Assembly (NCBI GenBank): GCA_963767275.1 | Contig: CAVYDL010000006.1 | Span: forward strand, 941,867 to 1,005,866 | From: an uncultured delta proteobacterium | GTDB lineage: Bacteria > Desulfobacterota > Binatia > UBA9968 | Direction of reading: 5' to 3' | DNA length: 64,000 nt | In this document: positions 7,762 to 45,506 of the stretch, piece by piece | Layout: each line of letters starts with the position of its first letter | Numbering within the stretch: position 1 is the stretch's first letter | Made by a program: the position numbers and the translations under genes | Notes under the pieces: generated by a model | Told to the model about the DNA's origin: nothing | The model's database searches: none | The model's input: the letters and a program-made list of their open reading frames with translations, nothing else

Positions 7762-8976
7762 ATGAGTACGGGTAAGCTGACAGTTGCGGCCTACAGCCAT
7801 TTCGGCGCCAGAGGCTTGAAAGGGGTCGAGACGTACTACCTCGTGCAAGAGGCCTGGAGGAGAGGATATTTAGAAAAGGTGATTGCCGTATCGAAAAAGC
7901 GTTGCCGTTTTGAGTTCGACCTCGCCCTTGTCGACACGCTTCCGGGAGAGTCACGGCTTATTTCCGGGCTGGTCCAGATCAAGGAAAAAGCCTGGCAGGC
8001 GTTCCCATCGAGGTGGTTCGGCGAGATGATTTTTGACCGCTATGCGGCTTCAAGGCTGAAGCGCTCAGGCGGCACCCTGATCCTGACCCCAGGAATGATC
8101 CACACAGCGCGGAAAGCTAAAGACCTCGGGTATACGATCTTACTGTACGGTGCCACTCCTGACCCTAGATATCTTATGGAGCAGATCCAGACCGAACGGG
8201 CGGCCCTCGGCTTTAAAGGCGGGGAAGATGATAAAGATCGCTCGCGGATGGTGGCACGCTGGACGGCTAGCTTGGCGTTAACAGACCACCTCCTCGCCGT
8301 CTCGGAGTTTTCCAGGGACACCTACGTCAAGTACGGTTTTCCGCTGGAAAGAGTATCGGTCGCTCCTCTTGGGGTCGCTCTGCAACGGTTCCCGCTAACA
8401 GCCCCTCCCACGGATAGCTGTTTCACCTACCTCTTCGTTGGTCACGTGAATGGAACAACGGGAATCGTGAAAGGGTTGCAATATCTCTTGCCGGCCTGGT
8501 GTGAGCTTAAATTGAAAAACGCTAGGTTGCTGGTCTGCGGAAAGATGGGCGCCGAGGGACGGGAAGTGATTCGGAGATATGACGGAAGGCTGCACAATGT
8601 CGAGTTCACTGGGCAAGTTAGTGACCCGGCGGAGTATTATCGCAAAGCGGCGGTGTTTGTCTTGCCATCGGTTGCCGAAGGGATGGCCAAGGTAACAATC
8701 GAGGCTATGGCCACCGGACGACCTGTCATTGTCACCCCAAACTGCGGAGCCGTGGCGCGCGATGGCGTTGATGGTTTCTATGTCCCAGCGCGAGATGTGG
8801 AGGCCTTGAAGGAGAGAATGCTCTATTTCTACAACCATCGCGAAGAGATCGCGAGGATGGGCGCCAACGCCAGTGAATGGGCCCAGAGGTTTACCTGGGA
8901 GAGATTTAGTCGGCAGATCGCTGATGTCATCGTGGGACCTCCACTCTGCAATAAGGTAGAGGTCGAGAAACGATGA
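7762..8976 (+). CDS. GT4 family glycosyltransferase. It is a paralog of the gene at 35680-36930.
   Basis: 'EGMAKVTIEAMATGRPVIVTPNCGAVARDGVDGFYVP' is a GT4 C-domain. Its N-terminus 'AAYSHFGARGLKGVETYYLVQEAWRRGYLEKVIAVSK' is near-identical to the 35680 gene. Confidence 0.85.
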   Translation: MSTGKLTVAAYSHFGARGLKGVETYYLVQEAWRRGYLEKVIAVSKKRCRFEFDLALVDTLPGESRLISGLVQIKEKAWQAFPSRWFGEMIFDRYAASRLKRSGGTLILTPGMIHTARKAKDLGYTILLYGATPDPRYLMEQIQTERAALGFKGGEDDKDRSRMVARWTASLALTDHLLAVSEFSRDTYVKYGFPLERVSVAPLGVALQRFPLTAPPTDSCFTYLFVGHVNGTTGIVKGLQYLLPAWCELKLKNARLLVCGKMGAEGREVIRRYDGRLHNVEFTGQVSDPAEYYRKAAVFVLPSVAEGMAKVTIEAMATGRPVIVTPNCGAVARDGVDGFYVPARDVEALKERMLYFYNHREEIARMGANASEWAQRFTWERFSRQIADVIVGPPLCNKVEVEKR

Positions 8977-10538
8977 AATCGGTCCGGGGGAAGATCGCTA
9001 AGGCAGCCGGCCTGCTTCTGGTGTTGCAAGTCTTTGAGCAGGCCACCGGCCTGATGAAACAGATGGTGATCGCCGCTCAGTTCGGAACTTCGGAAACGAT
9101 GGACGGCTATCTGATAGCGACGACCATTGTCGGGCTTATTCTTCTCTGGGTCGGCCTGCCGATCCGCCAGACTCTGATCCCCATGTTCCGCCACGATCTC
9201 GCGAAGCGGGGTGAACGAGCGGCTTGGGCCAATGCCAGCGTTCTCTTCAATAACCTACTGCTGGTTCTTATCGGTATCGTTCTCTTGGGGACACTAATAG
9301 CTCCTTACCTGGTGAGCATCCTGGCTCCCGGTTTCGATGAGAGCGCGCTGTCCTTGGCCACTTCTTTGGCCCGGATCACGATGGCCAGTGTGGTCTTTGT
9401 CGGTATGGGAAACGTGTTGTCCCAGATATTCTTTTCTTACGAAAGGTTCTTCCAGCCCGGCATCGCGGGCAGCGTGAATAACGTCGTGACGATGTTGGCA
9501 CTGCTCGCTTTAGGTGGCACGTACGGCATCTATGGTCTGGCCGTCGCCGTCGTGATAGGCGGCGGTTTTCACTTCGTGCTTCAGCTGCCGATTCTGTGGG
9601 AGAAGCGGAAATTTTATTCTGCCACGGTGAACTTTCGCCATCCGCACATGGTCGAGACCGGCAAGCTGAGCTTGCCGCTGCTGATTTCCACTGGCGGTAA
9701 CGAGTTGGCGAGAGTTACCGATCGGATCTTTGCCTCGCTCTTGGCTGCCGGAAGCCTCTCGGCCCTTGCGTTTGCCCATAGGCCAATCACGGTCCTGATC
9801 GAATTTCTAATCCACCCGCTTAATACAGCGACTTTGCCTCACTTCGCCAAGCTCAGTGCCGAGGGAGATTTTCGCACGCTGTCCCGCCAGCTCTTTTACT
9901 ATGTTCGTCTTATTGCTTTCTTTACGCTTCCCATCGCCGTCGGCCTCATGCTGCTGGCGGAGGACGCCGTCAGAACGCTCTATGGACGGGGGGCCTTTGA
10001 TGAAGCCTCGGTCCGCTTAACCGGTCAGGCGCTGTTCTTCTATGCGATCGGAGTGCCGGCCCAGGCGATAATGAGAATCTTCAGAAATGCTTTTTTTAAT
10101 CTGAAAGATACCTGGACGCCGACAAAAATAGCCCTTGGTCGTATCGCGCTCAAAATCATTCTCTCTTGGATTCTGGTCCAACCGATGGCCCATCGGGGTA
10201 TCGCCTTGGCCGAGTCTCTCTCGCTGATTGCCAACGCCTTCTTTCTCTTCTGCTTTCTGCCAAGGGAACTGAAGGGCAAAGAGGGATGGAAGACTCTGGC
10301 GGCGTTCGGGCAGACTCTGGCAGGCTGCGTCGTCATGGGAACCGTGGTGTACTTCGCGCAGGAGAAGCTAAACGGAATGATCAGTCTACCGCTGGAGCTC
10401 GTTACCTTGGTCATGCTGGGCGCAGCGACTTATGGCGCTACCGCGCTCCTCTTCCAGGCGGAGGTGAGCCACTCGATCCTAAAGACGGTGACGGAGTTGG
10501 GCGGAAAATACCTCAGAGGAGCTGCCAAAACAACATGA
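8973..10538 (+). CDS. MurJ/MviN-family lipid-linked oligosaccharide flippase (MOP superfamily)
   Basis: 521 aa and polytopic. The N-terminal pattern 'GLMKQMVIAAQFGTSETMDGYLIATTI' fits the MurJ N-terminal consensus (G..R....A..fG.s...DAf..A). Its start overlaps the GT4 stop (ATGA). Confidence 0.75.
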   Translation: MKSVRGKIAKAAGLLLVLQVFEQATGLMKQMVIAAQFGTSETMDGYLIATTIVGLILLWVGLPIRQTLIPMFRHDLAKRGERAAWANASVLFNNLLLVLIGIVLLGTLIAPYLVSILAPGFDESALSLATSLARITMASVVFVGMGNVLSQIFFSYERFFQPGIAGSVNNVVTMLALLALGGTYGIYGLAVAVVIGGGFHFVLQLPILWEKRKFYSATVNFRHPHMVETGKLSLPLLISTGGNELARVTDRIFASLLAAGSLSALAFAHRPITVLIEFLIHPLNTATLPHFAKLSAEGDFRTLSRQLFYYVRLIAFFTLPIAVGLMLLAEDAVRTLYGRGAFDEASVRLTGQALFFYAIGVPAQAIMRIFRNAFFNLKDTWTPTKIALGRIALKIILSWILVQPMAHRGIALAESLSLIANAFFLFCFLPRELKGKEGWKTLAAFGQTLAGCVVMGTVVYFAQEKLNGMISLPLELVTLVMLGAATYGATALLFQAEVSHSILKTVTELGGKYLRGAAKTT

Positions 10539-12352: not shown

Positions 12353-13227
12353 ATGAGGCGACCGGATTTTTTCATCGTCGGCGCACCCAAGTGCGGCACG
12401 ACCGCAATGATCGATTACCTGAAACAACACCCGGAGGTCTTCGTCCCGGACCGCAAAGAGCTTGACTTCTTTGGCAGGGACCTTGTGTTTAAAGGCCATC
12501 GACTCACCGAAGAAGAGTATCTGGATTTTTTTTCGCGGGCGACGGCGGAAAAGCGCGCCGGCGAAGGCTCGGTATGGTATCTGCACTCAAAAACCGCGGC
12601 ATTAGAGATCAAGGATTTTTCCCCGGCGCGCGGATCATAATCATGCTGCGCAATCCTCTCGACATGATGTATTCATTCCATAGCCAGCGTCTTTATAACG
12701 GCAACGAGGATATCGAAAATTTTTCAGCGGCATTGGATGCCGAGGCCGAGCGCAGACGAGGATTGCGCCTGCCCAAGGGCGCGTCGGATGTTTTCGGTTG
12801 GTGTTACCGCGACGTGGCGACTTATACCAAACAGGTCCAAAGATACTTTAACACCTTCGGCAAGGAACATGTTCGCGTCATTATTTACGACGATTTCGCC
12901 AAGGATGCCGGCCTCGCGTATCGAGAAACCTGCCAATTCCTCGATATAGACTCGGACTTTCAACCGGATCTCCGGATCATCAACACCAGGAAGCAGGTAC
13001 GAAGCAAAGCGTTGCGAGAATTCCTGCGACGCCCGCATCCTGCTTCGGGCTGGCTTTTTCGAGCGATAGGACTCCGCCCGGATCGCAACGGGGGATACAA
13101 AGGCTGGCTCAGGCGGTTAAACAGTAGTGACAATTCCCTTCGCCCGATGAATCCGGTATTGAGAAAACAACTGCAACGGGAATTTGCTCCTGAAGTCCGG
13201 CAGCTAAGCGCATTTACTCGGACGTGA
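12353..13227 (+). CDS. Sulfotransferase (subtype B), with a single frameshift near 12620-12635 in a GCGCGCG tract
   Basis: 'RRPDFFIVGAPKCGTTAM' is the PAPS 5'-phosphosulfate loop; '...IIIMLRNPLDMMYS' is the 3'-PB. It is collinear with the intact paralog at 38159-39052. An AGGAG RBS precedes the start. Confidence 0.7.
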
Positions 13228-13236
13228 TTTGAGCCA

Positions 13237-21184: not shown

Positions 21185-22940
21185 ATGTGCGGCATTGCCG
21201 GCAAATTGAATTTTCAACAGGGTCGTCCCGTCATGCACGACACCATCGCGCGGATGTGCGCGGTGATGCGGCACCGTGGTCCCGACGACGAGGGGATATA
21301 CCTGGACAGGAATTTCGGCATGGGCATGAGGCGGCTCAGCATTATCGATCTCGCTACCGGCAAACAGCCGATCAGCAACGAGGACGGGTCGATCTGGACG
21401 GTATTGAACGGGGAAATCTACAATTTTTTGGAGCTGCGCGAACCTCTCGAGCAGAAAGGCCACAAGTTTTATACCCATACCGACACCGAGGTGATCGTTC
21501 ATTTGTACGAAGAATACGGAGAAAAGTTCGCCGAACATCTGACCGGCATGTTTGCCGTCGCGGTCTGGGACAAGCGCCAACAGAAGTTGATCCTGGCGCG
21601 GGACCGGCTGGGGATCAAGCCGCTTTACTACTCGGAAGGCCCGAACGGATTACTTTTCGGATCGGAAACCAAGGCGATTTTACAGGACGGCATGGAGCGA
21701 GAGGTCGACTTGCAAGCGCTCCACGATTATCTCTCGTTCAACTACGTGCCGGGGCCGCGTTCGATTTTCAAGCATGTCCGCTCCCTTCCCGCTGGGCATG
21801 TTTTGACTTGCTCGGGAAAGAGCGTGGCGATTGCGCCTTATTGGCAGCTGCAATATCCGACGGCCTCGGCCAATGGCAAGCGGCCGCTCCGAGCAGAGCT
21901 ACTGTGAAGAACTGTACGAGCTGCTGTGCAGCACCGTCAAACAGCACCTGATCAGTGACGTTCCGCTCGGGGTTTTTTTGAGCGGGGGGGTCGATTCCAG
22001 CGCTCTGGTTGCGCTGATGAGCAAAGTTTCCTCGCAAACGATCCGGACTTTTTCCATTGGTTTTGAAGAGAAGTCATACAATGAGCTCGACTATGCCAGG
22101 ATCGTCGCGCGAGAATTTGGCACGGAGCACCACGAGCTGGTTGTCAGTCCCAACATCGTGGATCTGTTGCCCGAACTGGTGCGTTACTTCGATGAGCCGT
22201 TTGCGGATAGCTCGGCGATTCCGGTTTATTGTGTCTCGAAGCTCGCCAGGCAACACGTCAAAGTCGCTCTGAGCGGCGAGGGGGGCGACGAGGTGTTCGC
22301 CGGGTATCACACCTACACCGCCTATAAAATCGCCGAATTGTACAAACGCCTGCCGCGAAAGCTTGCCGCCGAGGTTATTCCGGCCATTGTCAGGCGACTG
22401 CCGGTTTCCCACAAAAAGGTCAGCTTCGATTATAAGGCGAAACGATTTATCGAGGGAGCGCTGCTGGCCCCGGCGGAGGGCCACTATTCGTGGAAGGTGA
22501 TTTTTACCGAGGAGGCAAAAGCCGCGCTTTACGCAAGTAATCGCGAAAGTTTTCAAGACCCCCTCCGGCTATACCAACGCGTCTATGAGGACTGCCCATC
22601 GGCCGATGTACTGACCAGGCTGCAGCACATCGACCTCAAGGTCTACCTGCCGGACGATATTCTCGTTAAGGCCGATCGAATGAGCATGGCCAATTCTTTA
22701 GAGGCGCGGGTGCCGTTCCTCGATCACCGGGTGGTCGAATTCGCCGCCTCGCTGCCGGCGCAGCTCAAACTTCGAGGCTTAACCAAGAAATATATTCTCA
22801 AGCGAACGATGTCGCGTGACCTTCCGGCCAAGGTCCTGAACGGAAAAAAGCGTGGCTTTAACGTTCCCATGCCCGGCTGGCTGCGCCACGAGTTGCGCGA
22901 CGTGGTGCACGAAGTTCTCGGTCCACGGCGGCTCAAATAA
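21185..22940 (+). CDS. asnB: Asparagine synthase (glutamine-hydrolysing) family amidotransferase, copy 1. The N-terminal Cys2 is present. There is a frameshift near 21880-21900.
   Basis: 'MCGIAGKLNF...RGPDDEGIY' is the class-II GATase domain. '...VFLSGGVDSSALVALM' (PP-loop) is in the downstream frame. Confidence 0.75.
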
Positions 22941-23146
22941 TGCCGGGTTTTTCAACCCTGAGGCTGGTGGCCGCGATGATCCGCGATCATGAGAGCATGC
23001 GCATCGATTACAGCCGCAATATTTGGTGCCTCCTGGTCTTCATGCTCTGGCATGACGAGTATGTACGGCATCCACGGGTTGCCGCATGCCAAGAACAAAT
23101 GGCTCTATAGCTTGGTAAATTTTATTTTGCGTCTTGAGGTGTGGTC

Positions 23147-26287: not shown

Positions 26288-27154
26288 TTGAGATTTGACT
26301 TTATGAGCTTGCCAACTTTTTTGGGTATTGGGGCTATGCGATCAGGCACTTCCTGGCTTTATGTGCAGTTACGAAGCCACAAAGATGTTTACATGTCGGA
26401 GCAAAAGGAACTCAACTTCTTCAATGATTTCTATAGCAACGGCATAGAGTGGTACCGTGGACATTTTCCGTTAGAAAAAGAAGCCGCGAACTATAAAGCA
26501 GTCGGAGAAATTACCCCGACGTATATGACGGCTCCGGATGCTCCGTCCAGAATTCATTTTCATATACCCGATTGCCGGTTTATCGCGATTCTTAGAAACC
26601 CGGTCCATCGCGCTTACTCTGAATATACGAAGAGGCTCCGGGATTTCAATTTTAATGGAACGTTCGATGAGTTCGTCGAGCGATTCCACGAAGTGCTTGC
26701 TCGAGGGTACTACGCGGAGCAGCTTAAAAACTATTTTCGACTATTTTCGCGGGATCGATTTCTCATCCTCATTTTTGAGGAAACGGTCGGAAATCATCAA
26801 GCAGCGACGCGAAAATTATCATCGTTTTTGCAGATCGATCCGAATGGGTTTGATCTGAGCCGAATGCAGCAAAAAGTTAATCCCTCATATCTTCCTAGAA
26901 TGCCGAGCCTCTACTCCTCAGCGGTAAAGATGAGGCAATCTCTGGTGAAGAAAAACCTGGGGCGGGTTCTCACGGCTGCCGAAAAGCTCGGGTTAATTCA
27001 TGCCGCTCGACAGGTTGTTCGATTTCGCGGACCTAGATCTGAGCTCCCCAAGATGGATGAAAGAACACGAAAGCGGCTGAACGACGTGTATTTGCAAGAA
27101 ATTCACACTCTCGAAGAACTCCTAGAACACGACTTATCGACCTGGAGGAACTAG
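26288..27154 (+). CDS. Sulfotransferase (subtype C), intact
   Basis: 'LGIGAMRSGTSWL' (5'-PSB) and 'ILRNPVHRAYSEY' (3'-PB). Confidence 0.8.
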   Translation: MRFDFMSLPTFLGIGAMRSGTSWLYVQLRSHKDVYMSEQKELNFFNDFYSNGIEWYRGHFPLEKEAANYKAVGEITPTYMTAPDAPSRIHFHIPDCRFIAILRNPVHRAYSEYTKRLRDFNFNGTFDEFVERFHEVLARGYYAEQLKNYFRLFSRDRFLILIFEETVGNHQAATRKLSSFLQIDPNGFDLSRMQQKVNPSYLPRMPSLYSSAVKMRQSLVKKNLGRVLTAAEKLGLIHAARQVVRFRGPRSELPKMDERTRKRLNDVYLQEIHTLEELLEHDLSTWRN

Positions 27155-28357: not shown

Positions 28358-30298
28358 ATGAAACAGCGCAGTTTTTCAACGGCTGACACCGCGGCTAGCG
28401 GGGAAATTTACCCAACCGCCGTCGGATCTCTCCATGGAAAAATATATGAGTCTGACTGGCTTATTTGGGCCGTCCAAGCGTGTATAAGCGTTTTGGGGCT
28501 TATTCTTTTCAGCCCTCTTCTGATTTTGATTGCTTTTACAATTAAGCTTACCGATGGCGGGGATATATTTTACCGCGGCGAACGGGTCGGCCGGGGAAAG
28601 TGTAGATTCAAGATCTACAAATTCCGGACGCTCGTCGAGGATGCAGAAAAAAAGATCGGCGCCCGGCTATTGCGCACCGAAGATCAGGGCATCTATTACA
28701 CGAGGATCGGAAAATTTTTAAAGCGAAGCAAGCTTGATGAATTACCGCAGCTGCTGAACGTTATTCGAGGTGAGATGCGGCTTACGGGTCCTCGACCGGT
28801 GCGTCCTATCTTCCTCGATCAGTTCGAGCGCACCATCCCAAATTACCCTGATCGTTTCTTGGTGCCCCCGGGTATCACAGGGGTTGCCCAACTTCGCGGC
28901 GGTTATTACACTTCACCACGGAACAAACTTCGTTACGATCTCATCTACATCAAGCGGCGGTCCCTGCTTTTCGATTTCAAAGTCGTCTTCTTCACATTCG
29001 CTAAAATACTCAATCGATGGTTCAACAGAGGGTTTTTCGTTCTTTTCCTGTTTCTCTTTGTTTCCTTTCTCCCGGCTGGCTTACAAACTTCTTTATACGT
29101 AACACTCTTCGGCACCAGGATCAGCCTCCTTTATCTATTCATTATCGTTTTAGCGGCTGGACTCTTCTTTAAGAAGGGGCCTACTCAGGTTTGCCTTTAT
29201 CGTGGCCCGCTCAACTTTCCGCTGGTTTTGTTTTTCGCTCTTAGCGCCGTCTCTGCGTTTTTCGCCGAGGATTTGGATCAGGCCCTCTTGAGGGCCGGTT
29301 ATTACATCGTCACGGGGTTCATGGTTGCCTTTCTGATTGTGAACAGCCTCGCGACCAAGGGGTTTATTATTTTGACGGCGCGAGTCATCGCGCTGACCTC
29401 GGTCGTGATGTCGGTGTTTGGGCTATTTCAGATCTTTCTCTTCAATTATACCGTCGCCTTGGCCGCGCCTTTTTCCGGCGAACAACTGGCCGGCTATATC
29501 CGGGCATCTTCCCTTCTTGGCAATCCGGTGGTTCTGGCGGTATACCTCGTTTTGGGACTGCCGCTCCTGCTGTCGGAGGTGACCCGCGCTTCACGGCAGA
29601 GGGAGCGAGACTTCTGGCTCGTCTGCGCCACCCTGTCTTTCGTCGGCATCTTTTTCACTCAGACACGGATCGGACTCTTAGCTCTGCTCGTGACCGGAAC
29701 CGCCTTTCTTTCGCGACGCCGGGGTCACGCGCTCTTCTTTGTCACGATCTGTTTAGTCTGGTTGCTGTCTCTGATTTCGCTCGGCGGCGCTCGCTTCTCA
29801 CCCGCCGGGATGCGGGGCGAGGTGACCGCCTGGGTGGCAAAACAATTGCACATTCTCCGAGAGATTCCGGTTAAGACATGGCTAATTGGTGGCGGAGTCG
29901 TCACACCCTACCCGCTCGTCACAGAACCTATAGCGGAGATCGCTCAGTCCGCAGAGGAAGAGGCCGCCCGCGAGATACCGAACATGCATGTCACTTTAGC
30001 TCTGGAGCATGGAATAATCGGCTGGTGTGTGATCGTCTGGCTCATCCTGACTGCTGTGCGGACGATGACTCAGGCTCATCGAAGTACAAGAGACCACCAG
30101 CTCAAGTCTATTTTATGGGCGATCGTGTCGTCTCTGGTCGGTTTTCTGGTCTCCATGAACGCCATGAACGTTTTTCACAATCTCACGCTGCAGATCTTTT
30201 TCTGGAGTTTGATCGGTATTGGGCTCGGCATCGTGGTGCATCTAAAAGGTTACCGGCGGTCCAATCTGATCTGGCGGTTCGGCGATGCCGGTGATTGA
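28358..30298 (+). CDS. Fusion protein: an N-terminal small (PglC/WbaP-C-like) polyprenyl-phosphate sugar phosphotransferase joined to a C-terminal polytopic O-antigen-ligase/Wzy_C-like domain
   Basis: Residues 1-230 'LILFSPLLILIAFTIKLTDGGDIFYRGERVGRGKCRFKIYKFRT...DELPQLLNVIRGEMRLTGPRP' are the bacterial sugar-transferase domain. Residues ~240-640 contain at least 10 TM helices with 'FTQTRIGLLALL' (Wzy_C/O-antigen-ligase signature). Confidence 0.75.
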   Translation: MKQRSFSTADTAASGEIYPTAVGSLHGKIYESDWLIWAVQACISVLGLILFSPLLILIAFTIKLTDGGDIFYRGERVGRGKCRFKIYKFRTLVEDAEKKIGARLLRTEDQGIYYTRIGKFLKRSKLDELPQLLNVIRGEMRLTGPRPVRPIFLDQFERTIPNYPDRFLVPPGITGVAQLRGGYYTSPRNKLRYDLIYIKRRSLLFDFKVVFFTFAKILNRWFNRGFFVLFLFLFVSFLPAGLQTSLYVTLFGTRISLLYLFIIVLAAGLFFKKGPTQVCLYRGPLNFPLVLFFALSAVSAFFAEDLDQALLRAGYYIVTGFMVAFLIVNSLATKGFIILTARVIALTSVVMSVFGLFQIFLFNYTVALAAPFSGEQLAGYIRASSLLGNPVVLAVYLVLGLPLLLSEVTRASRQRERDFWLVCATLSFVGIFFTQTRIGLLALLVTGTAFLSRRRGHALFFVTICLVWLLSLISLGGARFSPAGMRGEVTAWVAKQLHILREIPVKTWLIGGGVVTPYPLVTEPIAEIAQSAEEEAAREIPNMHVTLALEHGIIGWCVIVWLILTAVRTMTQAHRSTRDHQLKSILWAIVSSLVGFLVSMNAMNVFHNLTLQIFFWSLIGIGLGIVVHLKGYRRSNLIWRFGDAGD

Positions 30299-30575: not shown

Positions 30576-31553
30576 ATGAATATCCTTAAACGAATACTGC
30601 CTCAGCGTGTGTCCGAGACGGCGGCCCAGGCCGTTCAATCTGCTCCTCAATCCACAAGCGCTGCCCAGAAGGATCGGGTCGAGGCTGCACGACCTTCACC
30701 GCAGGCAACCAACAACTACATCATCGTGGTGCTCGATAGCTGTCGCTACGATAGCTTCATGGCCGCGGCGCCTCCCACCTTGAGCCGGCTCGGTCCCATC
30801 GAGCGCCGCTGGAGCTATGCGTCGTGGACCGCTCCCTCGCATTATAACCTGCTGATGGGGTTGCTCCCCCACTCCAGCCCGCCCCATGTCTACGCGTCGG
30901 AGTACTACAAACACGACTTCCTCAAATATCGAGAACGCCTGGGCGCCGAGCAGGTAGAGTTTAAGAGCCTGGTGCCGCACCTCTTCTTGCCCACGTTACT
31001 CAAACAAAAGCTGGGCTATCAGACTCACGCGCTGGTGTCGCTGCCGGTGCTCAATCCCGCGACCCTTATCAACAAAGACTTCGATCGCTTTATTTTAATG
31101 CCCAAGCACAACGACATGGCGGCGATGATCGATCGCATGACATTCTCCCCCGACCGGCCGTCTTTTTACCTGTTGAACGTAGGCGAGACGCACTACCCTT
31201 ATGCGTTGCCGGATGAGCCCGAGGACTGCTGGCCGAAAATTCACGGAGTGCACGGCGTTTTTAAACACTTGGATGACCTGGTGGTGGGAGGAAAGCTGAT
31301 CGAGGACGAAGGAGCACAGGACAAGTTCTTCGACCAGGACAAACTCGACGACCTGCGTGAGCGTCAGATTGGGACCGTGCGTTACCTCGATGGGATCTTC
31401 GCCCGCCTTTTTGACGTGGTGCCGCCCAACACCTATATCACGGTGACCGCCGATCATGGTGAGTTGTTTGGCGAGGAAGGGTACTTTGGCCACGGGCCCA
31501 TTTACCATGAGAAGGCCTACGAGGTGCCCTTCGTCGAGGGTAAAATCCGCTAG
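30576..31553 (+). CDS. Sulfatase-like alkaline-phosphatase-fold protein, copy 2 (325 aa). It has the same Thr/His active-site variant as copy 1.
   Basis: 'YIIVVLDSCRYDSF...ASWTAPSHYNLLMG' and 'TVTADHGELFGEEGYFGHG'. Confidence 0.65.
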   Translation: MNILKRILPQRVSETAAQAVQSAPQSTSAAQKDRVEAARPSPQATNNYIIVVLDSCRYDSFMAAAPPTLSRLGPIERRWSYASWTAPSHYNLLMGLLPHSSPPHVYASEYYKHDFLKYRERLGAEQVEFKSLVPHLFLPTLLKQKLGYQTHALVSLPVLNPATLINKDFDRFILMPKHNDMAAMIDRMTFSPDRPSFYLLNVGETHYPYALPDEPEDCWPKIHGVHGVFKHLDDLVVGGKLIEDEGAQDKFFDQDKLDDLRERQIGTVRYLDGIFARLFDVVPPNTYITVTADHGELFGEEGYFGHGPIYHEKAYEVPFVEGKIR

Positions 31554-31755
31554 GAAGAATTCTTTTGCGTGAGTACTTGCGGTTGCAATCAACTTTGACC
31601 CGCTGACTCGACAGAAGATGCCTGAAATTACTTCAAAGAGTGAGGGCGCGAATAGGTATTGCAGAAAAAATTGATGGGTCGTGAGAGTAGGATTATTTCT
31701 ACCACACATAGTAGAAAAATCACGGGGCCAAAAAAAGCACAGGGAGGATAAGACT

Positions 31756-32819
31756 ATGAACAAGGGAGTCAGCCAAACCGGAGGAGGATCAAAGGTGAAA
31801 ACGAGACAGATGACCCTGTATGTATTTCTTAGCGGCGCAATCTTACTCGCGACAGCGCCGCTTGCTTGGGCGGACATTTGCGGCGGTGCTGGAACCGCGA
31901 AAATCCCCTGTAAGTGCGGCGATACGGTGACTGCGAGTACTACATTGGACCCCATCGTGGACCCCGTCGTGTCCACAAACGACGATGATTTCTGCTCTGA
32001 CGATGGGCTTATTGTTAGTACCACCAACGTCAACCTGAATCTTGGCGGTCAAATAATCCGGGGTTCGGGCCTTGGTTTCGGTTTGGTGTGGGCATTAGAA
32101 TTCTCGGCGTTAATGTTGACAGGGTCCAAGTTAGGAACGGTGGAATTAAGGCCTTCGAGACAGGAATCGCTACCCCTGTCGGCAATAGTTCCAATAGATC
32201 CACGATTCGAAAGGTCGCGGTCAGCGATAACTTACTTTTGGGGATAGACTTGGTGGGCAATACCAACACGCTGGACACCGTCGACTCACTAACAAACGGC
32301 GACACCGGGATAAGGGTCCAGGGCAATGGCACCACAATGCTGATCATCCGATCGAGTCAGAACGGCAACCACGGAATAGAAGTGATTGGCGATGGGACGG
32401 TGCTCCGCTCAGGTCAAGTTAACAGAAATGTCGGAAATGGGATTCAAGTGACGGGTAATGGCAGCCTTTTGGATAAGAATCTGGCAACGAAAAATTTCGA
32501 TGGGATAGTGATAGCCGGTAACGGTGACGGAAACTCGGCCACCCTTGAGTTATTGAAGAACAAAGCTGCGGAAAATGATCGGAATGGAATTATCGTGACC
32601 GGCAATAACCATGTCCTCCAGGAAAACCAGGCACCTCTGAACGGCGAGGATGGCATTGCGGTTAACGGCACGGGAAACCGTCTAAGCACGAACAAGGCTA
32701 ACGACAATGGCGATGACGGGCTCCTCGTCACGGGTGGCGGTAATATCAACGGTGGTGGAAATTTCGGAAAGAGTAACGATGGCGTGATCCAATGTCAAAT
32801 CGACGGGTTAAACTGTTAG
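31756..32819 (+). CDS. Secreted Cys-motif parallel beta-helix protein, copy 4. It is frameshifted near 32071-32090 in a GGTTT-repeat context.
   Basis: GGGAGG RBS. 'MTLYVFLSGAILLATAPLAWADICGGAGTAKIPCKCGDTVTAS' is followed by beta-helix rungs in the second frame (32088-32819) and ends 'VIQCQIDGLNC'. Confidence 0.7.
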
Positions 32820-34305: not shown

Positions 34306-34449
34306 TCGCGCCGATCTCAAACCCGTAGTCCCGCTTAAGGCTGAGATAGTGATTATGATTAGTGGTAACAGACCATGAGTTTTCCGCTTTCTAGGGCATT
34401 CACACATCGAGCTGAACTTCAGGTTGTCTTTAAAAGGAGGAAAAAAACA

Positions 34450-35649
34450 ATGCAACGAACGTCATTCTCCACATGCTTCGCTGTCGCGGCGGCGTTTATC
34501 GGGCTGCTGTTCGGTACACCATTACACGCACGCGCCGATTCCTTTAACTTCGAGAAAATCGCCGATTTTAACACTGTCATTACCGGTGGGAAGAAGACTC
34601 TTACCGGCCTTCACGATCCTTCTATCAATGATCAGGGGCAAGTGCTGTTCAGGGCAAGAGGTAAGTCCGGTCAGCGCGGCGTTTATGTCTACCAGGGCGG
34701 TATTCTTTCGGTAGTGGCAGACGCCAATACTGTTCTCCCCGGTGAGGCAGGGGTTTTAACGGGCGTTCACGATCTAGCGATGAATGACAGCGGCGAAGTA
34801 GTGTTTGAGGCAACAGGCAGTTCCGGCCAGCAGGGCATTTACTTCAAAGCGGGCGGAAGTCTCGCGGTTGTGGCAGACCGCAAAACGTCCATTCCCGGTG
34901 GAAGCGGAAATTTCACCAATCTCAGCGCTCCTTTTATCAGTAAACAGGGGGAGGTTCTTTTTAAGGGAGACGGCGAGAACGATCAGCACGGTATCTACAG
35001 CTATAGAGGAGGCATACTGGCTATTGTCGCCGACACTAAAACTGCTATTCCTGCGGGAAAAAAATTCTTCGTTAATTTCCGTCATCTTTCGATAAATAGG
35101 GCGGGACAGGTGGTGTTTAACGGCAAGGGCCACTCTGAGCAGCGCGGCATTTATATCCACATGGGCGACCGTCTAGTGGTTGTAGCGGACCGCAACACGC
35201 CTCTTCCTGATGGAAGTAAAACTTTTAAAGCGTTCCGCAAAGCTTCCATTGACGCTGAGGCGGAGGTCGCGTTTAAGGCAAAAGGGAAATCCGATCAGCG
35301 CGGTATTTATACCGACATCGGAGGTAATCTCGCTGTCGTGGCGGACCACAATACGGCAATTCCGGGCGGAGCGGGAAATTTTAATTTATTCGGGATCCCT
35401 TCTATCGATAGCGGGCACGTGGCCTTTACAGCCAACGGCGATAACCAAGGAGGTCTATACACGACCCTCGGCGGATCGCTTACGAAGGTCCTCGCATTGG
35501 GCGATCCGCTTGCTGGAAAGACAGTGACGGAAATAATTTTTCGACCGGACGGCCTTAAAGGTAACAACGTCATCTTCAAAGTCATCTTCGACGATTCTTC
35601 GAGAGGCATCTACCGCGCCGTTCTGGCTACCTCAGCTTCGAGTTCCTGA
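34450..35649 (+). CDS. Secreted repeat protein with ~7 x 48-aa repeats, probably a 7-bladed beta-propeller
   Basis: AAGGAGG RBS. Signal peptide 'MQRTSFSTCFAVAAAFIGLLFGTPLHARA'. The repeating unit is 'G..G.Q.GIY...GG.L..VAD..T.IPGG.G.F..F..P.I...G.V.F.A.G' (e.g. QRGVYVYQGGILSVVADANTVLPGEAG / QQGIYFKAGGSLAVVADRKTSIPGGSG). Confidence 0.6.
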   Translation: MQRTSFSTCFAVAAAFIGLLFGTPLHARADSFNFEKIADFNTVITGGKKTLTGLHDPSINDQGQVLFRARGKSGQRGVYVYQGGILSVVADANTVLPGEAGVLTGVHDLAMNDSGEVVFEATGSSGQQGIYFKAGGSLAVVADRKTSIPGGSGNFTNLSAPFISKQGEVLFKGDGENDQHGIYSYRGGILAIVADTKTAIPAGKKFFVNFRHLSINRAGQVVFNGKGHSEQRGIYIHMGDRLVVVADRNTPLPDGSKTFKAFRKASIDAEAEVAFKAKGKSDQRGIYTDIGGNLAVVADHNTAIPGGAGNFNLFGIPSIDSGHVAFTANGDNQGGLYTTLGGSLTKVLALGDPLAGKTVTEIIFRPDGLKGNNVIFKVIFDDSSRGIYRAVLATSASSS

Positions 35650-38158: not shown

Positions 38159-39052
38159 ATGAGATCGCCTGATTTTTTTATCGTTGGAGCGCCGAAATGT
38201 GGCACCACCGCGATGAATTTTTATCTCAAACAACATCCCGACATCTTCATGTCTGAGAAAGAAATTCATTTTTTCGGTGAGGATTTGCGCTTCACGGTCC
38301 CCAGGGTGACGAGACAACAATATCTCGCCGCTTTTTCCCTTGCGACAGAGGCTAAAAGAGCTGGGGAGGCCGCGGTGTGGTACTTGTACTCGCGGCAGGC
38401 TGCAGACGAAATAAAAGAATTCTCTCCTGCGGCGCGGATCATTATTATGCTTCGCAACCCCGTCGACGTTATGTATTCGCTCTACCGGCAACGCCTGTAT
38501 AACGGCAACGAAGATATCGAAGATTTCGAAGCGGCATTGGATGCCGAGGAGAGTCGAGAGTTGGGAGAACGCATGCCGCGACGGCCGTCGAATCTCATGG
38601 GGTGCTTTTACCGGGCGAGCGTGAAATTCACGAGTCAAGTCCGGCGCTATTTCGATCGGTTCGATCGGCAGAATGTGCATGTCATCATTTTCGACGATTT
38701 CCAGAAAGATGCAGCTCTGGTCTACAGCCAATGCTGTGATTTCCTCGATGTAGATAATCGTTTTCGGCCAAGCTTCCCCGTCATTAATGCTAGGCAACGT
38801 GCCCGCAGCGAGTTTATACGCGATCTATTGCACGATCCTCCCCAATCCTTTCACTGGCTTGCCAGGGCGTTGATGCTTCGGCGGAACCGCCAGGGGGGAT
38901 ACAAAGGCTGGCTAAAGCGTTTAAATACCACTCACGCCAAAATTCCGCCGATGAAACCGGAGTTGCAGCGGTCACTGAAGAAAGAGTTCCGGCCAGAAGT
39001 GGAAAAGTTAAGCGAGTTGCTCGACCGCGATCTAACCACCTGGTGCAAGTGA
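38159..39052 (+). CDS. Sulfotransferase (subtype B), intact
   Basis: 'RSPDFFIVGAPKCGTTAM' and 'IIIMLRNPVDVMYSLY'. Confidence 0.85.
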   Translation: MRSPDFFIVGAPKCGTTAMNFYLKQHPDIFMSEKEIHFFGEDLRFTVPRVTRQQYLAAFSLATEAKRAGEAAVWYLYSRQAADEIKEFSPAARIIIMLRNPVDVMYSLYRQRLYNGNEDIEDFEAALDAEESRELGERMPRRPSNLMGCFYRASVKFTSQVRRYFDRFDRQNVHVIIFDDFQKDAALVYSQCCDFLDVDNRFRPSFPVINARQRARSEFIRDLLHDPPQSFHWLARALMLRRNRQGGYKGWLKRLNTTHAKIPPMKPELQRSLKKEFRPEVEKLSELLDRDLTTWCK

Positions 39053-39575: not shown

Positions 39576-39591
39576 TGGCACTGCCCTTGCA
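39576..39591 (+). promoter_or_regulatory. Candidate sigma-54 (-24/-12) promoter, TGGCACtgcccTTGCA
   Basis: It matches the consensus TGGCACG-N4-TTGCW at 11 of 12 defined positions, with the GG/GC spacing exact. It sits 17 nt upstream of the 39608 ATG. Confidence 0.4.
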
Positions 39592-39607
39592 CATGGCGTC
39601 GGGAACC

Positions 39608-41083
39608 ATGAAATTCCCGATACTCATATCCATGTTTGCCGTGGCCAATCTATTTTTGAGTTTGCCTGCGTTTGCGAAAGACAAACCACCGACCGAACCC
39701 GTAGTGATCGACGACGGGGCCTACACTAGCTCTTTTATAAAGCTACATGCGAAGTGGACTAGCCCTAGTCCCGAATCGGGAACCGTCAAATTTAGATATC
39801 AAATCCGCGAGGGGTCAACTTCAGGCCCTATCATAGTTGGCTGGCAGTCGGTTGGTCTGGCAACCGAAATCACCCATCTTGGGTTAAGTCTTTTCAACGG
39901 GAAGACCTATTATATTGGGGTGAAGGCGATAAATAGCGAAGGCAAGACGTCCGACGTGGGTTACTCGGACGGGATCACAGTACAAAATAGTTCCGCACCG
40001 CCGCCACCACCGCCACCGCCACCACCGCCGCCGCCACCACCGCCGCCGCCACCACCGCCACCACCACCACCGCCGCCACCACCAACGAGCGGGGTACTGG
40101 AAGGATTTGGCTCTCAAACATCAGGTGGTGCGGGGAAGCCAATCGTCTTTGTTAGCAATCTGAACGATTCCGGTCCAGGCTCTCTCAGGACTGCGCTGTC
40201 TGGTGGAGATAGGACGATTCAATTCTTGGTGGGTGGTTTGATCCCGCTTACCAGTACTCTGCGTGTGAATGGAGCAAATATCACGCTTGACGGTTGCAGT
40301 GCCCCTGCACCAGGAATCACTCTTGTTGGTCGTCCGGTAGACATTCGCGGCAACTACGGTGCGCACGATGTTATCGTTCAATGTATTCGTAGCCGAGATT
40401 CTATTGATGATGGTTTCACTATTAGCGAAGGGGCGTTTAACATAGTCCTGGATCGGGTAAGTGTTGCTAATGCTGCTGACGGAGCTATCGACATTGGTAG
40501 TTGGAACGGAAAGCATACGCACGATATAACTATCCAGCGTTCGTTAATGACTCAGCCACGTAAGATCATGTTGGTGAAATATTTTGATGTTAAACGGGTT
40601 AGTTTACATCATAATTTATTTGCTGATTCGACTGATCGGAGCCCGCGCATTGCCTATAACCAGAGCGGCGGGTTGCCAGCGAATGAAATTACCGTCGACT
40701 TGCGCAACAACGTGATCGCCAATTGGAGGGGAGGAATCGGCACGGATGCATCCTGCGGCGCTAAAGCCAATATAGTAGGAAATTACTTTTCCAATTCTGG
40801 TGCATCGGTGACCGATCAGAAGCAGGGAATCGTTGTGTCCAGTGCATCCGAAACTTGCCTCCAAGGTTTTGCATACGTGGAGGGCAACGAGAGTGCAGAT
40901 GTTCCGGATATAGACAACACGCCTTATATTCGCGTGCCCAAAGAAACCATCCCGTTTGCCGCACCACTGATCACAGAGCAGAACGCATGTGGCGCTGCGC
41001 AAATCGTTCTAGCCACGGCTGGCCATCCGATTCGCGACGACATTGATCAAGCTGCGGTCGGCAGAGTGAGAATCAATTGCTAA
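39608..41083 (+). CDS. Secreted multidomain polysaccharide lyase: FN3-like domain, ~30-residue polyproline linker, then a pectate-lyase-family-1-like beta-helix catalytic domain
   Basis: Signal peptide 'MKFPILISMFAVANLFLSLPAFA'. '...VKFRYQIREGS...YYIGVKAINSEGKTS' is FN3-like. Then come the Pro run and 'GKPIVFVSNLNDSGPGSLRTAL ... IVLDRVSV ... SLHHNLF ... DRSPRIAY' (PL1 vWiDH / HHN / RxPxxR-like motifs). Confidence 0.75.
   Translation: MKFPILISMFAVANLFLSLPAFAKDKPPTEPVVIDDGAYTSSFIKLHAKWTSPSPESGTVKFRYQIREGSTSGPIIVGWQSVGLATEITHLGLSLFNGKTYYIGVKAINSEGKTSDVGYSDGITVQNSSAPPPPPPPPPPPPPPPPPPPPPPPPPPPPPTSGVLEGFGSQTSGGAGKPIVFVSNLNDSGPGSLRTALSGGDRTIQFLVGGLIPLTSTLRVNGANITLDGCSAPAPGITLVGRPVDIRGNYGAHDVIVQCIRSRDSIDDGFTISEGAFNIVLDRVSVANAADGAIDIGSWNGKHTHDITIQRSLMTQPRKIMLVKYFDVKRVSLHHNLFADSTDRSPRIAYNQSGGLPANEITVDLRNNVIANWRGGIGTDASCGAKANIVGNYFSNSGASVTDQKQGIVVSSASETCLQGFAYVEGNESADVPDIDNTPYIRVPKETIPFAAPLITEQNACGAAQIVLATAGHPIRDDIDQAAVGRVRINC
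39996..40084 (+). repeat. (CCG/CCA)n simple repeat encoding ~29 consecutive prolines
   Basis: An uninterrupted run of ccg/cca codons. The antisense strand reads as a W/R-rich ORF, which is an artefact. Confidence 0.9.
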
Positions 41084-43889: not shown

Positions 43890-45506
43890 GTGCAACCGAT
43901 GAAAGAATATACCGAGCCTGCGCGTCTCTCCCTATCCGGCGAACGCGTTGCGCATGTCCTTGGCGCCCTAGGATTTGCATCGGTCGGAAGATTCTTGTTC
44001 TGGTCGTTGGCATTCGGTGTTGCCTACACGCAAGCACCGCTTTACACGTCAAATCAAAACACCAAATTTCTTATTGGATTGGCAGACGCTGGTTTGGGAT
44101 TTTTGAACGAGGACTGGCTGGCCAATACCTTAGACCCTTTTCCGCTCTTTAGCTTCTTAGTCTATGCGACTTATCGCTACCTTCACGCAAACGCGTTCTA
44201 CTTCTACAATATTATTATCTTCGGCGTTTATCTTTATAGCGTGGCAGGGATCGTGGCGAAAATCTGCAACATCAAGGAACCACGACCTAAATATCTTACG
44301 TTCCTGGTCACTACTATTGCACTTCATTCTTACGTTTTAGACTCTCTCTCTATGAGAATTTTTGGTTTTGAACTGGCACAGCTCCACTATGGCATGGCCG
44401 AATATCATATCATCGGGCGAATATTTCAGCCTAGCGTATTTGGCGTTTTCATTCTCTTATCAATCTACGCGTTTCTTAGTAAACGTCTCTTTTCGGCTGC
44501 TTTTTTGTTGGTTTTCGCGGCAATAATTCATCCCACTTACCTTTTAATTTCTGCGGTACTGACAGTCGCATATATGTTAGTTGTTTACCGAGAGGAAAAA
44601 AGCTTAAAGAAGTCACTCTCTCTAGGGCTTTTCAATCTGACGTTGATACTGCCGGTCTTGGGCTATCTCTTCATCTACTTTAGCCCAACGTCGCCTGAGT
44701 TGTGGAGCAACTCGAAAGCGGTGTTGATCAATATCAGGAGCCCGCATCACTTCAACCCGGAAGTTTGGCTTGGCGGGCTCGTGTATATCAAACTAGGCAT
44801 TACGGCAGTGGCTATTTATCTGGTCAGAAACACGCGGCTTTTCCCGATCATGTTGTTACCTTTTGCGGTTGCCGTAATTCTGACCATGACACAGGTAATA
44901 TGGGGAAATAACGGCCTTGCGGCTCTTACGCCCTGGCGTATGTTCATTGTCTTAGTGCCGCTGGCGCTCGCTATTATTGTCGGATATCTCGTTTCGCGAT
45001 TTTTCGAGAAGTTCTTCAATCCGGCCGGGGAACGATATGCAGTAACGACTCTGGTAAATTTTACGGTACTGCTGGTGCTGGTTCTCTATGGCGCGAATAC
45101 GCAGATGAAACGTTTTACGAATTACTATGGCGGCGAAACGATGCCGATGATGAACTTTGTAAGGGAAGCGAAATCTTTCGGTGACAACTTTCTCATACCC
45201 GTCGAATTTGAAGACTTTCGACTTTATACAGGCGCGCCTATCTTGGTAAATTTCAAGTCAGGGCCATACAAGGATACTGAATACATGGAGTGGTATCAGC
45301 GCTTCATCGGAGCTAGCGATTTTTACAATGCCCGGGACGAGGCCGCTTGCGACATTCTTCAAAGGTTGCACGATAGGTACAAGCTAACGCACGTTGTCGT
45401 CAAAGGCGCCCATCCCGGCGCACGGTGCGGGAATTTGGCGAAATTATACGAAGATGATCACTATAGCGTTTATAGAATACAGAAAGAGAATTCATCAGGC
45501 AGCTAG
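43890..45506 (+). CDS. Polytopic integral membrane protein of unknown function with a C-terminal soluble domain. It is a possible GT-C-like glycosyltransferase or polymerase, but that is speculative.
   Basis: There are at least 11 hydrophobic segments in residues 1-400, and a hydrophilic tail 'YGGETMPMMNFVREAKSFGDNFLIPVEFEDF...'. I see no diagnostic motif. Confidence 0.55.
   Translation: MQPMKEYTEPARLSLSGERVAHVLGALGFASVGRFLFWSLAFGVAYTQAPLYTSNQNTKFLIGLADAGLGFLNEDWLANTLDPFPLFSFLVYATYRYLHANAFYFYNIIIFGVYLYSVAGIVAKICNIKEPRPKYLTFLVTTIALHSYVLDSLSMRIFGFELAQLHYGMAEYHIIGRIFQPSVFGVFILLSIYAFLSKRLFSAAFLLVFAAIIHPTYLLISAVLTVAYMLVVYREEKSLKKSLSLGLFNLTLILPVLGYLFIYFSPTSPELWSNSKAVLINIRSPHHFNPEVWLGGLVYIKLGITAVAIYLVRNTRLFPIMLLPFAVAVILTMTQVIWGNNGLAALTPWRMFIVLVPLALAIIVGYLVSRFFEKFFNPAGERYAVTTLVNFTVLLVLVLYGANTQMKRFTNYYGGETMPMMNFVREAKSFGDNFLIPVEFEDFRLYTGAPILVNFKSGPYKDTEYMEWYQRFIGASDFYNARDEAACDILQRLHDRYKLTHVVVKGAHPGARCGNLAKLYEDDHYSVYRIQKENSSGS

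Follow-up and report, generated by a model that had tools for sequence, protein, structure and literature searches.

How bacteria match the start and the end of surface-glycan synthesis is an open question. At stake is the trapping of undecaprenyl phosphate, a scarce carrier that is also needed for the cell wall. The evidence for coupling has so far been mostly genetic inference, as in the feedback model of Hong and Reeves, in which WaaL was proposed to signal to WbaP (PMC4863624). The locus studied here raises the question of whether both ends of such a pathway can reside in one polypeptide. It lies in a 64-kb stretch of DNA, here called the window, which was analysed as a whole (coordinates refer to it and to the + strand unless stated otherwise). 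One ORF (28358..30298; 646 aa, ATG start) joins a phosphoglycosyl transferase (PGT) to a Wzy_C/WaaL-like domain, and the initial annotation had read it as a fusion of a small PglC-type PGT with a Wzy_C/O-antigen-ligase-like polytopic domain.

The ORF listing gave 28358..30298 as one ORF with no internal stop or frameshift, and an identical 646-aa protein had been called independently on a 2.35-Mb metagenome contig; the claim of a single ORF was thus borne out. The strings quoted in the initial annotation were located at residues 127–147 (DELPQLLNVIRGEMRLTGPRP) and 432–438 (FTQTRIG). We found at least 115 full-length homologues with the same architecture, from independent assemblies, and both domains lay in a single reading frame in 24 of 24 loci from different studies and phyla, with C-domain identities among these loci as low as 33 %. 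The hosts were Binatia, Rokubacteria/Methylomirabilota and others, all members coming from uncultured soil bacteria. The comparative sequence data confirm that the fusion is real and conserved; it is also rare, and the initial annotation had already called it unusual. That the long ORF is an artefact, either an assembly mis-join or a frameshift joining two neighbouring genes, has practically no chance of being correct and was dropped on the homologues, the independent assembly and the 24 single-frame loci: other window genes do show indel-type frameshifts relative to a 98.9 %-identical contig, but the identical protein in an independent assembly, the recurrence of the architecture across several studies and phyla and the junction, which is a conserved helix, all speak against it.

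The stretch in which a mis-join had been suspected (29050–29100, residues ~231–248) is the first transmembrane helix of the C-terminal domain and is among the better conserved, gap-free parts of the family alignment (A1, 40 sequences). In the AF2 model, the junction is a continuous helix (residues 203–237; 28964..29068) in which the last part of the PGT merges with TM1 of the C-domain. It is gap-free and conserved in A1, and R220, W221, F232, S236, F237 and P239 around it are conserved in at least 90 % of the sequences. The ORF might still yield two separate polypeptides in vivo, through an internal translation start or through proteolysis after residue ~220. Nothing specific favours this reading, and we consider it very improbable: the junction lacks a conserved Met and is predicted to form one continuous helix, and stand-alone copies of the fused C-domain clade are essentially absent. 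A search with the C-domain only returned almost exclusively fused proteins. In the tree, one split held all 44 fused C-domains and two other sequences, a fragment and a 407-aa protein of uncertain status. Values of dN/dS were 0.13–0.24 for the N-domain and 0.10–0.135 for the C-domain, which indicates that both domains are under purifying selection.

The N-terminal part of the protein had been described as a complete monotopic PGT, and this proved correct. Its catalytic domain (residues ~36–220; 28463..29017), predicted to lie on the cytoplasmic face, matched Pfam PF02397 (Bac_transf) with 177.2 bits (cut-off 27; E 3e-52) over residues 40–218, a match spanning profile positions 5–178 of 179. 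Profile searches of the PDB matched PglC (8e37/8g1n) and WbaP, and Foldseek placed the domain close to PglC (8e37_A; TM 0.82). A re-entrant membrane helix (residues ~36–66; 28463..28555) was recognized by a hydropathy peak at 42–60 and by AF2 helices at 26–50 and 52–65, with a break at S52–P53; P53 is conserved in at least 90 % of the sequences. The catalytic dyad Asp127–Glu128 (28736..28741) lies in the motif KLDELPQ, of which K125, L126, D127, E128, P130 and Q131 are invariant in 40 homologues, and the GPRP motif is invariant in A1. The domain thus shares Pfam family, fold, Ser–Pro re-entrant helix and Asp–Glu dyad with PglC of Campylobacter and with the catalytic domain of WbaP/WcaJ, and the assignment as a small PglC-type initiating PGT is supported by these sequence and fold matches. 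An extra domain fused to the catalytic core also characterizes the Bi-PGT class of the Imperiali/Allen classification, for which acetyltransferases or glycosyltransferases are named as partners (PMC11626204). Unlike in those Bi-PGTs, the partner here is a 12-helix integral membrane domain with a predicted site on the other face of the membrane.

That partner (residues ~222–630; 29021..30247) was placed in the Wzy_C/O-antigen-ligase superfamily by Foldseek, HMM and bridging-profile searches. Its top Foldseek match, obtained with the predicted model, was WaaL (7tpg_B; E 1.2e-7, probability 1.0, target TM 0.57). Pfam Wzy_C (PF04932) did not match the window protein at E≤10, either with the whole protein or with the C-domain alone. 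However, eight homologues reached 24.9–31.2 bits over the whole profile (gathering cut-off 31.7), and a profile of the C-domain retrieved, with E 1e-33 to 1e-18, stand-alone proteins which are themselves accepted by Pfam Wzy_C. An HMM built from 67 stand-alone Wzy_C relatives in turn matched the window C-domain with E 2.6e-66. In PDB sequence searches, profiles of the fused family only (A1 and A2) gave no match for the C-domain, whereas a bridging profile with the stand-alone relatives included reached 7tpg at E 9.7e-19. The nearest named families were IctB, PEP_O_lig_1, TfpM and RfaL, and no Wzy polymerase model matched the C-domain in an NCBIfam search. These results support the view that the C-domain is a divergent member of the superfamily; the earlier Wzy_C assignment holds by fold, by family profiles and by the sub-threshold matches of homologues, but not as a Pfam match in the window protein itself. 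Homologues, domain profiles and fold thus agree on a PglC-type PGT and a Wzy_C/O-antigen-ligase-like domain in one chain.

We then asked how closely the C-domain resembles WaaL. Hydropathy and the AF2 model, the confidence of which is moderate (pLDDT 75, pTM 0.67), gave one re-entrant helix (~36–66) and a C-terminal domain of 12 helices, which agrees with the earlier count of at least 10. Like WaaL of Cupriavidus metallidurans (7tpg), the domain has 12 helices with both ends predicted to be cytoplasmic, and a large periplasmic loop precedes the final three. The predicted cytoplasmic loops contain 19 Lys and Arg in 71 residues, compared with 9 in 131 periplasmic residues. This bias supports the claim that the two active sites face opposite sides of the membrane, as far as the predicted topology goes.

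The large periplasmic loop (residues 477–548; 29786..30001), delimited by hydropathy, AF2 and charge, carries R479 and G511xG513, which are conserved in fused and stand-alone sets alike. It is the only large one; the loop at 362–390 is short and poorly conserved. A further periplasmic turn, T434-Q-T-R437 (29657..29668), contains R437, which corresponds to R191 of C. metallidurans WaaL (CmWaaL) in the 7tpg alignment and is invariant in alignments A2 and A3. We compared the domain with the strict WaaL motif H[NSQ]x9Gxx[GTY], in which the catalytic His is H313 in CmWaaL and H337 in E. coli, and with the conserved Arg residues R191 and R265 of CmWaaL (R215 and R288 in E. coli). H313-N314 of 7tpg aligned to the P541 column and N542 within P541-N542-M543-H544 (29978..29989). 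Pro thus occupies the position of the catalytic His, in a column that is variable across the clade (S/G/P/A), and a His at +3, H544, is conserved instead. N542, G552 and G555 are kept, so that N-x9-G-xx-G is preserved from the ligase motif along with the first Arg. The column aligned to R265 is at about E488 and has no conserved Arg, although the alignment of this loop is uncertain and the conserved R479 is nearby. Unlike WaaL, the domain has a variable H313 position, apparently no R265 equivalent and a score below the Pfam Wzy_C threshold. By its sequence the C-domain is not a canonical WaaL, and because the catalytic His and, as far as the alignment shows, the second Arg are missing, it can be called no more than a putative ligase. 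Its chemistry may differ from that of WaaL, or it may not be a transferase at all.

In the latter case, the C-domain would be a membrane anchor, an oligomerization scaffold or a regulator of the PGT that senses Und-PP-glycan in the periplasm, comparable with the extra N-terminal domains of WbaP-like large PGTs. The lost WaaL residues fit such a role, large PGTs bear non-catalytic membrane domains (PMC10942596), and a feedback idea exists already in the work on WaaL and WbaP cited above. Two cytoplasmic motifs point in the same direction. R417-D418-F-W420 (29606..29617), in the TM6–TM7 loop, is invariant in A1; its D is found in 68 % and its W in 84 % of fused proteins, and neither occurs in stand-alone relatives. 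The C-terminal tail NLIWRFGDAGD (30263..30295) has W639 invariant and R640 and F641 conserved in at least 90 % of A1, and IWRFGD is absent from the stand-alone consensus. That only fused proteins conserve the RDFW loop and the IWRFGD tail suggests communication between the domains, and signalling to the PGT would be one form of it. However, the conserved C-domain residues fall in predicted periplasmic loops, and R437, R479, G511, G513, N542, E550 and G552 are strongly conserved in common with true Wzy_C proteins. Furthermore, dN/dS is no higher for the C-domain than for the catalytic N-domain. We therefore regard a purely non-catalytic C-domain as improbable.

The neighbouring genes are those of an exopolysaccharide-type cluster. 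Neighbour families were counted by targeted BLAST with annotated neighbours; single-linkage clustering of six-frame ORFs was discarded since spurious overlapping frames merged families. A conserved partner gene encodes an AsnB-like glutamine amidotransferase (21187..23109). It is split by a frameshift in the window and intact (624 aa) in locus L001, is present in 18 of 23 loci and adjoins the fusion gene in 13. A MurJ/MOP-family flippase (8973..10538) was identified by Pfam MurJ (E 8e-72) and TIGR01695 (257 bits, above cut-off); the exact protein of ORF 8973–10535 is not on record. The other neighbours include GT4 glycosyltransferases, deacetylase-like proteins, methyltransferases and sulfotransferases. 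Within the 64-kb window we found no chain-length regulator, Wzz/Wzc co-polymerase, outer-membrane exporter or recognizable acceptor pathway, and no LPS core genes were seen. The initial annotation had stated that no separate Wzy or WaaL is present. No other recognizable Wzy_C protein was found in the window, which agrees with this statement, but the window also encodes two polytopic proteins whose family is unknown, DUF6798 at 43890–45506 and a protein with about nine helices (nine hydropathy peaks) at 54549–55781 on the − strand. In five related loci, the fusion gene is accompanied by an additional, neighbouring Wzy_C gene of the stand-alone type.

Some of these genes resemble the XrtA/PEP-CTERM system. 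The amidotransferase and two GT4 neighbours best match NCBIfam models of that system, TIGR03108 for the former (615 bits; cut-off 817) and TIGR03088 for the latter (196 bits for a GT4 neighbour; cut-off 409). TIGR03013 (EpsB_2) is the second-best NCBIfam match of the PGT domain (185 versus 393 bits), and the C-domain weakly matches TIGR03097 (PEP_O_lig_1; 22 versus 188 bits). In XrtA/PEP-CTERM loci, separate genes encode the sugar transferase and the ligase-like protein. The window genes examined included no exosortase, and the choice-of-anchor repeat protein at 34375–35649 has no PEP-CTERM end. With all scores below their cut-offs in addition, membership in an exosortase/PEP-CTERM system was dropped.

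A Wzy-type repeat-unit polymerase is another possible identity of the C-domain. The protein would then couple initiation to polymerization, and the pathway would either be completed by a different protein or lack ligation. The fusion is the sole recognizable Wzy_C-superfamily protein in the window, and the absence of a second Wzy_C gene fits a fused polymerase equally well. Moreover, a MOP/MurJ-type flippase is encoded in the cluster, in line with a Wzx/Wzy pathway. Wzy enzymes depend mainly on Arg residues, so that the lack of the WaaL His and, apparently, of the second Arg would also be in keeping with a polymerase. On the other hand, no Wzz/Wzc co-polymerase accompanies it in the window. 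In Wzy of P. aeruginosa, Arg-rich motifs lie in two large periplasmic loops, whereas there is a single large loop here (477–548). The nearest named families are ligase- or oligosaccharyltransferase-like, with no polymerase model matching, and the stand-alone Wzy_C gene of the five related clusters leaves room for a separate polymerase. Ligase- or oligosaccharyltransferase-type transfer is for these reasons somewhat more likely than Wzy polymerization, and the polymerase, although a serious candidate, seems doubtful to us.

We propose, with about an even chance of being right, that the fusion is a bifunctional inner-membrane enzyme which couples chain initiation to the final transfer of the Und-PP-linked glycan. 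The N-terminal PGT would start the glycan on the cytoplasmic face. The GT4s, the AsnB-like amidotransferase, the deacetylase-like proteins, the methyltransferases and the sulfotransferases would build and decorate it, and the MurJ/MOP-type flippase would carry it across the membrane. The C-domain, with R437, R479, G511xG513, N542, H544 and E550 facing the periplasm, would take the Und-PP-linked glycan, pass it en bloc to an acceptor and free Und-PP. The fusion would fix a 1:1 stoichiometry of the first and the last carrier-lipid steps in the same membrane patch, so that initiation is matched to consumption and scarce carrier lipid is reused locally. The analysis shows the architecture, the homology and fold of the two domains, their predicted topology, their conservation under purifying selection and the gene neighbourhood; that both domains are active, what the acceptor is and that the two steps are coupled are inferred from these data. 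A bolder form of this proposal, which we offer as speculation and think rather unlikely in all its parts, is a 'carrier-lipid loop' enzyme. It would load Und-P inside and unload the finished glycan outside; through the RDFW loop and IWRFGD tail, initiation would be gated from the periplasmic site, and non-canonical chemistry without the WaaL His would put a sulfated, amidated glycan on an acceptor new to the superfamily.

The proposed ligase-type enzyme differs from WaaL in being fused to a PGT and in being encoded in an exopolysaccharide-type rather than an LPS core cluster. A precedent is WadA of Brucella, which was shown to be bifunctional (Servais et al. 2023, PMC9938171): its glycosyltransferase domain is cytoplasmic, and its O-antigen ligase domain is periplasmic. 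Both proteins combine, in one chain, a cytoplasmic sugar transferase with a C-terminal polytopic ligase-type domain, with sites (predicted in the case of the fusion) on either side of the inner membrane. Unlike the conventional glycosyltransferase of WadA, which prepares the acceptor by adding the last core sugar, the cytoplasmic domain of the fusion is a PGT that would make the lipid-linked donor. The coupling logic would therefore differ, being a donor cycle instead of acceptor preparation.

Both component families are known, whereas the PGT–Wzy_C/WaaL-like arrangement is rare and so far unnamed. Leaving aside O'Toole et al. 2021 (PNAS 118:e2018289118), which is said to be a catalogue of PGT fusions, a full-text literature search returned no paper that describes it. 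The clade also exposes a blind spot of annotation. Because the second domain scores slightly too low for Pfam, the databases name these proteins only 'sugar transferase', and an InterPro query for the PF02397 plus PF04932 architecture would mostly miss the clade since its Wzy_C relation is sub-threshold. The fusion extends the idea of dual-face membrane enzymes, of which there is one earlier description, that of Brucella WadA. As a conserved natural fusion of what would be the first and the last carrier-dependent enzymes, it offers one protein in which coupling can be tested. If the 'carrier-lipid loop' were true, it would be a natural and structurally tractable case of WbaP–WaaL feedback between initiation and ligation.

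The initial annotation described a phosphoglycosyl transferase (PGT) of the PglC/WbaP-C type fused to a Wzy_C/O-antigen-ligase-like domain. This observation was confirmed, and homologues, reading frame, fold and profile searches supported its reading. The ORF listing returned a single 646-codon ORF with an ATG start (28358-30298, plus strand), exactly as claimed, and both quoted peptides were located in the 646-aa protein, at residues 127-147 and 432-438 (FTQTRIG). An independent metagenome contig of 2.35 Mb (ENA ERZ25039516 contig_213; locus L001) encodes an identical 646-aa protein. Over 20.8 kb, this contig and the window were 98.9% identical with 19 gap openings, so the window represents a close relative that was assembled separately. 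A possible assembly mis-join at 29050-29100, raised in the initial annotation, was rejected: the region encodes the transmembrane helix with which the C-domain begins and is conserved and gap-free in the family alignment. In the AF2 model, one unbroken helix (residues 203-237) spans the domain junction.

A full-length search covering JGI, ENA, Logan and NCBI assemblies found at least 115 clusters of fused proteins (590-683 aa) that covered 91-100% of the query, with identities down to 43%. Searching with the C-domain only yielded 147 proteins, the complete ones all with PF02397; the short matches come from contigs no longer than a few kb and therefore look like fragments. When one genome of each GTDB species was scanned, 18 fusion loci emerged, every one of them in a MAG. 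Most belonged to Binatia and the remainder to Rokubacteria/Methylomirabilota, 'delta proteobacterium' bins, Thermodesulfobacteriota and Limnocylindria. The PGT domain lay directly upstream of the C-domain in the same reading frame in all loci compared (24/24). In a neighbour-joining tree of 126 C-domains, which carries no bootstrap support, one split held all 44 fused sequences together with P0147, a fragment, and P0187, a 407-aa protein of uncertain status. This grouping indicates a single origin of the fusion. Measured against three relatives, the N-domain had dN/dS ratios of 0.13-0.24 and the C-domain ratios of 0.10-0.135. We regard it as near certain that the fused architecture is real; judged by these comparisons, the fusion is also old and under selection. 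Our full-text literature search found no description of a PGT fused to Wzy_C or to a ligase partner; the fusion catalogue of O'Toole et al. (2021) lay outside this search, and an earlier listing is possible. Source annotations named the fused proteins only 'sugar transferase' or 'glycosyltransferase'. In the PGT-Wzy_C-like fusion, two known families are combined in an architecture that is rare but conserved.

Pfam Bac_transf (PF02397) matched residues 40-218 of the N-domain (E 3e-52; 177 bits vs a cut-off of 27), and among NCBIfam models the domain was nearest to the catalytic domains of EPS, WcaJ and WbaP-type transferases. Searched against the PDB, a profile of 40 family members matched only PglC (8e37, 8g1n) and WbaP, with the match spanning residues 34-223. 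The AF2 model of the whole protein had a mean pLDDT of 75 and a pTM of 0.67, and Foldseek superposed its PGT domain on PglC 8e37_A (target TM-score 0.82). K125, L126, D127, E128, P130, Q131 and the GPRP motif (144-147) were invariant in the 40 members; S52-P53 lies inside the hydrophobic re-entrant helix (residues 42-60). Since only ~35 residues precede this helix, the domain corresponds to a small-PGT core and not to a WbaP-type large PGT.

Hydropathy and the AF2 model placed 12 helices and a 72-residue loop (477-548) within residues ~222-630. Lys and Arg made up 19 of 71 predicted cytoplasmic loop residues vs 9 of 131 predicted periplasmic ones, which fits a C-domain that enters from the cytoplasm right after the PGT domain and ends there. 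Pfam Wzy_C did not match the window protein; eight homologues matched the whole profile at 24.9-31.2 bits (cut-off 31.7). In Foldseek, the only strong match of the C-domain was the O-antigen ligase WaaL of Cupriavidus metallidurans (CmWaaL; 7tpg_B, E 1.2e-7, probability 1.0), followed by SEDS polymerases (E 3e-3 to 0.2). A C-domain profile searched against 1.84 billion representative proteins found 46 at E<=1e-30. The complete ones were almost all 600-663 aa long and matched over ~200-650, hence fused; P0180, a stand-alone protein of 414 aa, also scored in this range. Weaker matches were stand-alone proteins of 400-490 aa, and the six that were scanned all passed Pfam Wzy_C, at E 1e-9 to 1e-24. 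The window C-domain was matched over its full length by an HMM of 67 stand-alone proteins (E 2.6e-66), and a mixed profile of fused and stand-alone sequences reached 7tpg at E 9.7e-19. These results make membership in the Wzy_C/O-antigen-ligase superfamily secure despite the failed curated Pfam test. The search of 1.84 billion proteins also returned a 981-aa MurJ flippase-Wzy_C fusion (P0238) and a protein of 807 aa in which Wzy_C occurs twice (P0186).

Residues were mapped by alignment to 7tpg and by column statistics of 44 fused and 80 stand-alone sequences. CmWaaL R191 and N314 correspond to R437 and N542, both conserved in the fused clade. The catalytic H313 corresponds to P541, a position variable in the fused clade (S/G/P/A) and His (45%) or Asp (42%) in stand-alone relatives. 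R265 falls near E488 in an uncertain loop alignment, where the fused clade has no conserved Arg. At H544, three residues past the canonical His position, at least 90% of close family members and 63% of the broader fused set have His, whereas stand-alone relatives have Tyr or Phe. The fused clade retains the ligase-motif glycines G552 and G555 as well as E550; fused and stand-alone sequences alike conserve R479, G511 and G513. By these residues, the C-domain is not a canonical WaaL. Its nearest named families, and those of its stand-alone relatives, were IctB, PEP_O_lig_1, the O-oligosaccharyltransferase TfpM and RfaL, all below cut-offs; NCBIfam polymerase models matched neither group.

Two motifs set the fused clade, where they are conserved, apart from the stand-alone relatives, which lack them: D418 and W420 of the loop RDFW (417-420), and the C-terminal tail NLIWRFGD (with W639), which has low pLDDT in the AF2 model. 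Both are predicted to be cytoplasmic, beside the PGT domain, and we infer that they may make up the domain-domain interface or regulate it.

The window further encodes several GT4 glycosyltransferases, epimerases, a UDP-glucose dehydrogenase, methyltransferases, DUF2334 deacetylase-like proteins, a carbamoyltransferase and two AsnB-like amidotransferases. Sulfate supply and transfer are represented by four sulfotransferases, a fused ATP sulfurylase/APS kinase, a CysQ-like phosphatase and a TauE-family exporter, and a sulfatase and a sulfatase-like hydrolase are also present (toolkit at 10166-11032, 12574-14151, 26288-27154, 38159-39052, 59191-62012, 2316-3710 and 30576-31553). This dense sulfation gene set suggests that the organism, a Binatia-like soil bacterium, makes a sulfated exopolysaccharide. 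A MurJ/MOP flippase (8973-10538) scored above the NCBI equivalog cut-off for the lipid II flippase MurJ (257 vs 236 bits); it looks untypical of Wzx and may be the cell's own MurJ or a MurJ-like glycan flippase. Taken together, these genes suggest that a flippase-dependent pathway produces a sulfated heteropolysaccharide, which probably contains uronic acid and is amidated. No recognisable separate Wzy_C, Wzz/Wzc or Wza was found within the 64-kb window. A DUF6798 polytopic protein (43890-45506) and a 410-aa polytopic protein matching nothing in Pfam or NCBIfam (54549-55781, minus strand), each with nine hydropathy peaks, are candidates for a divergent polymerase or flippase. An ORF running off the window start (1-2319) has a 772-aa product with two GT4 modules. 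The AsnB-like gene at 21187-22940 and a 353-aa gene at 31681-32819 are each split over two frames and intact on L001, reflecting either long-read indel errors or recent pseudogenes. The gene at 39587-41083 encodes a secreted 498-aa protein with ~34 consecutive prolines before a pectate-lyase-like region (NCBIfam PelZ, E 1e-16), and its homologues recur in seven related loci. The product of 34375-35649 has a signal peptide and NxxGxxAF 'choice-of-anchor' tandem repeats (DUF7453), and showed no PEP-CTERM or other recognisable C-terminal anchor.

Across related loci, an AsnB-like amidotransferase occurred in 18 of 23, and in 13 of these less than 100 nt or so separated it from the fusion gene; its top NCBIfam match was TIGR03108 (XrtA/PEP-CTERM amidotransferase), below cut-off. 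GT4 genes recurred in 15 loci, and a Polysacc_deac_1 deacetylase in seven, adjoining the fusion gene in most. NRPS and polyketide synthase genes, including an MbtH protein and an NRPS with a sulfotransferase domain, directly adjoin the fusion gene in three unrelated loci (L002, 1-9669; L003, 13010-21926; L006, 15289-21890), which could be coincidence or a glycan-lipopeptide link.

PGTs make Und-PP-sugar on the inside of the membrane, and Wzy_C-family enzymes use Und-PP-linked glycans outside, releasing Und-PP. Both domains of the fusion are intact, under selection and assignable to known enzyme families; they are predicted on opposite membrane faces, and their gene lies in a flippase-containing glycan cluster. 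For the outer reaction, we lean towards a ligase-type transfer to an acceptor, given the ligase-like nearest named relatives, the single large loop and the presence, in five related loci (L005, L006, L014, L017, L024), of a further stand-alone Wzy_C gene lying 6-9 kb upstream. Repeat-unit polymerisation, which these three observations make the less favoured reading, would fit the window having no other recognisable Wzy_C, and the missing WaaL catalytic His counts against a ligase. Coupling of initiation to terminal transfer, as originally proposed, is plausible. It echoes a published hypothesis that WaaL signals to WbaP (PMC4863624). Brucella WadA, demonstrated to be a fusion of glycosyltransferase and ligase whose sites lie on the two membrane faces (PMC9938171), offers a parallel, the two-sided arrangement being predicted here. 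Such a fusion would link the first carrier-lipid step to the last, both in location and in stoichiometry, and its fusion-specific cytoplasmic motifs might supply feedback as well.
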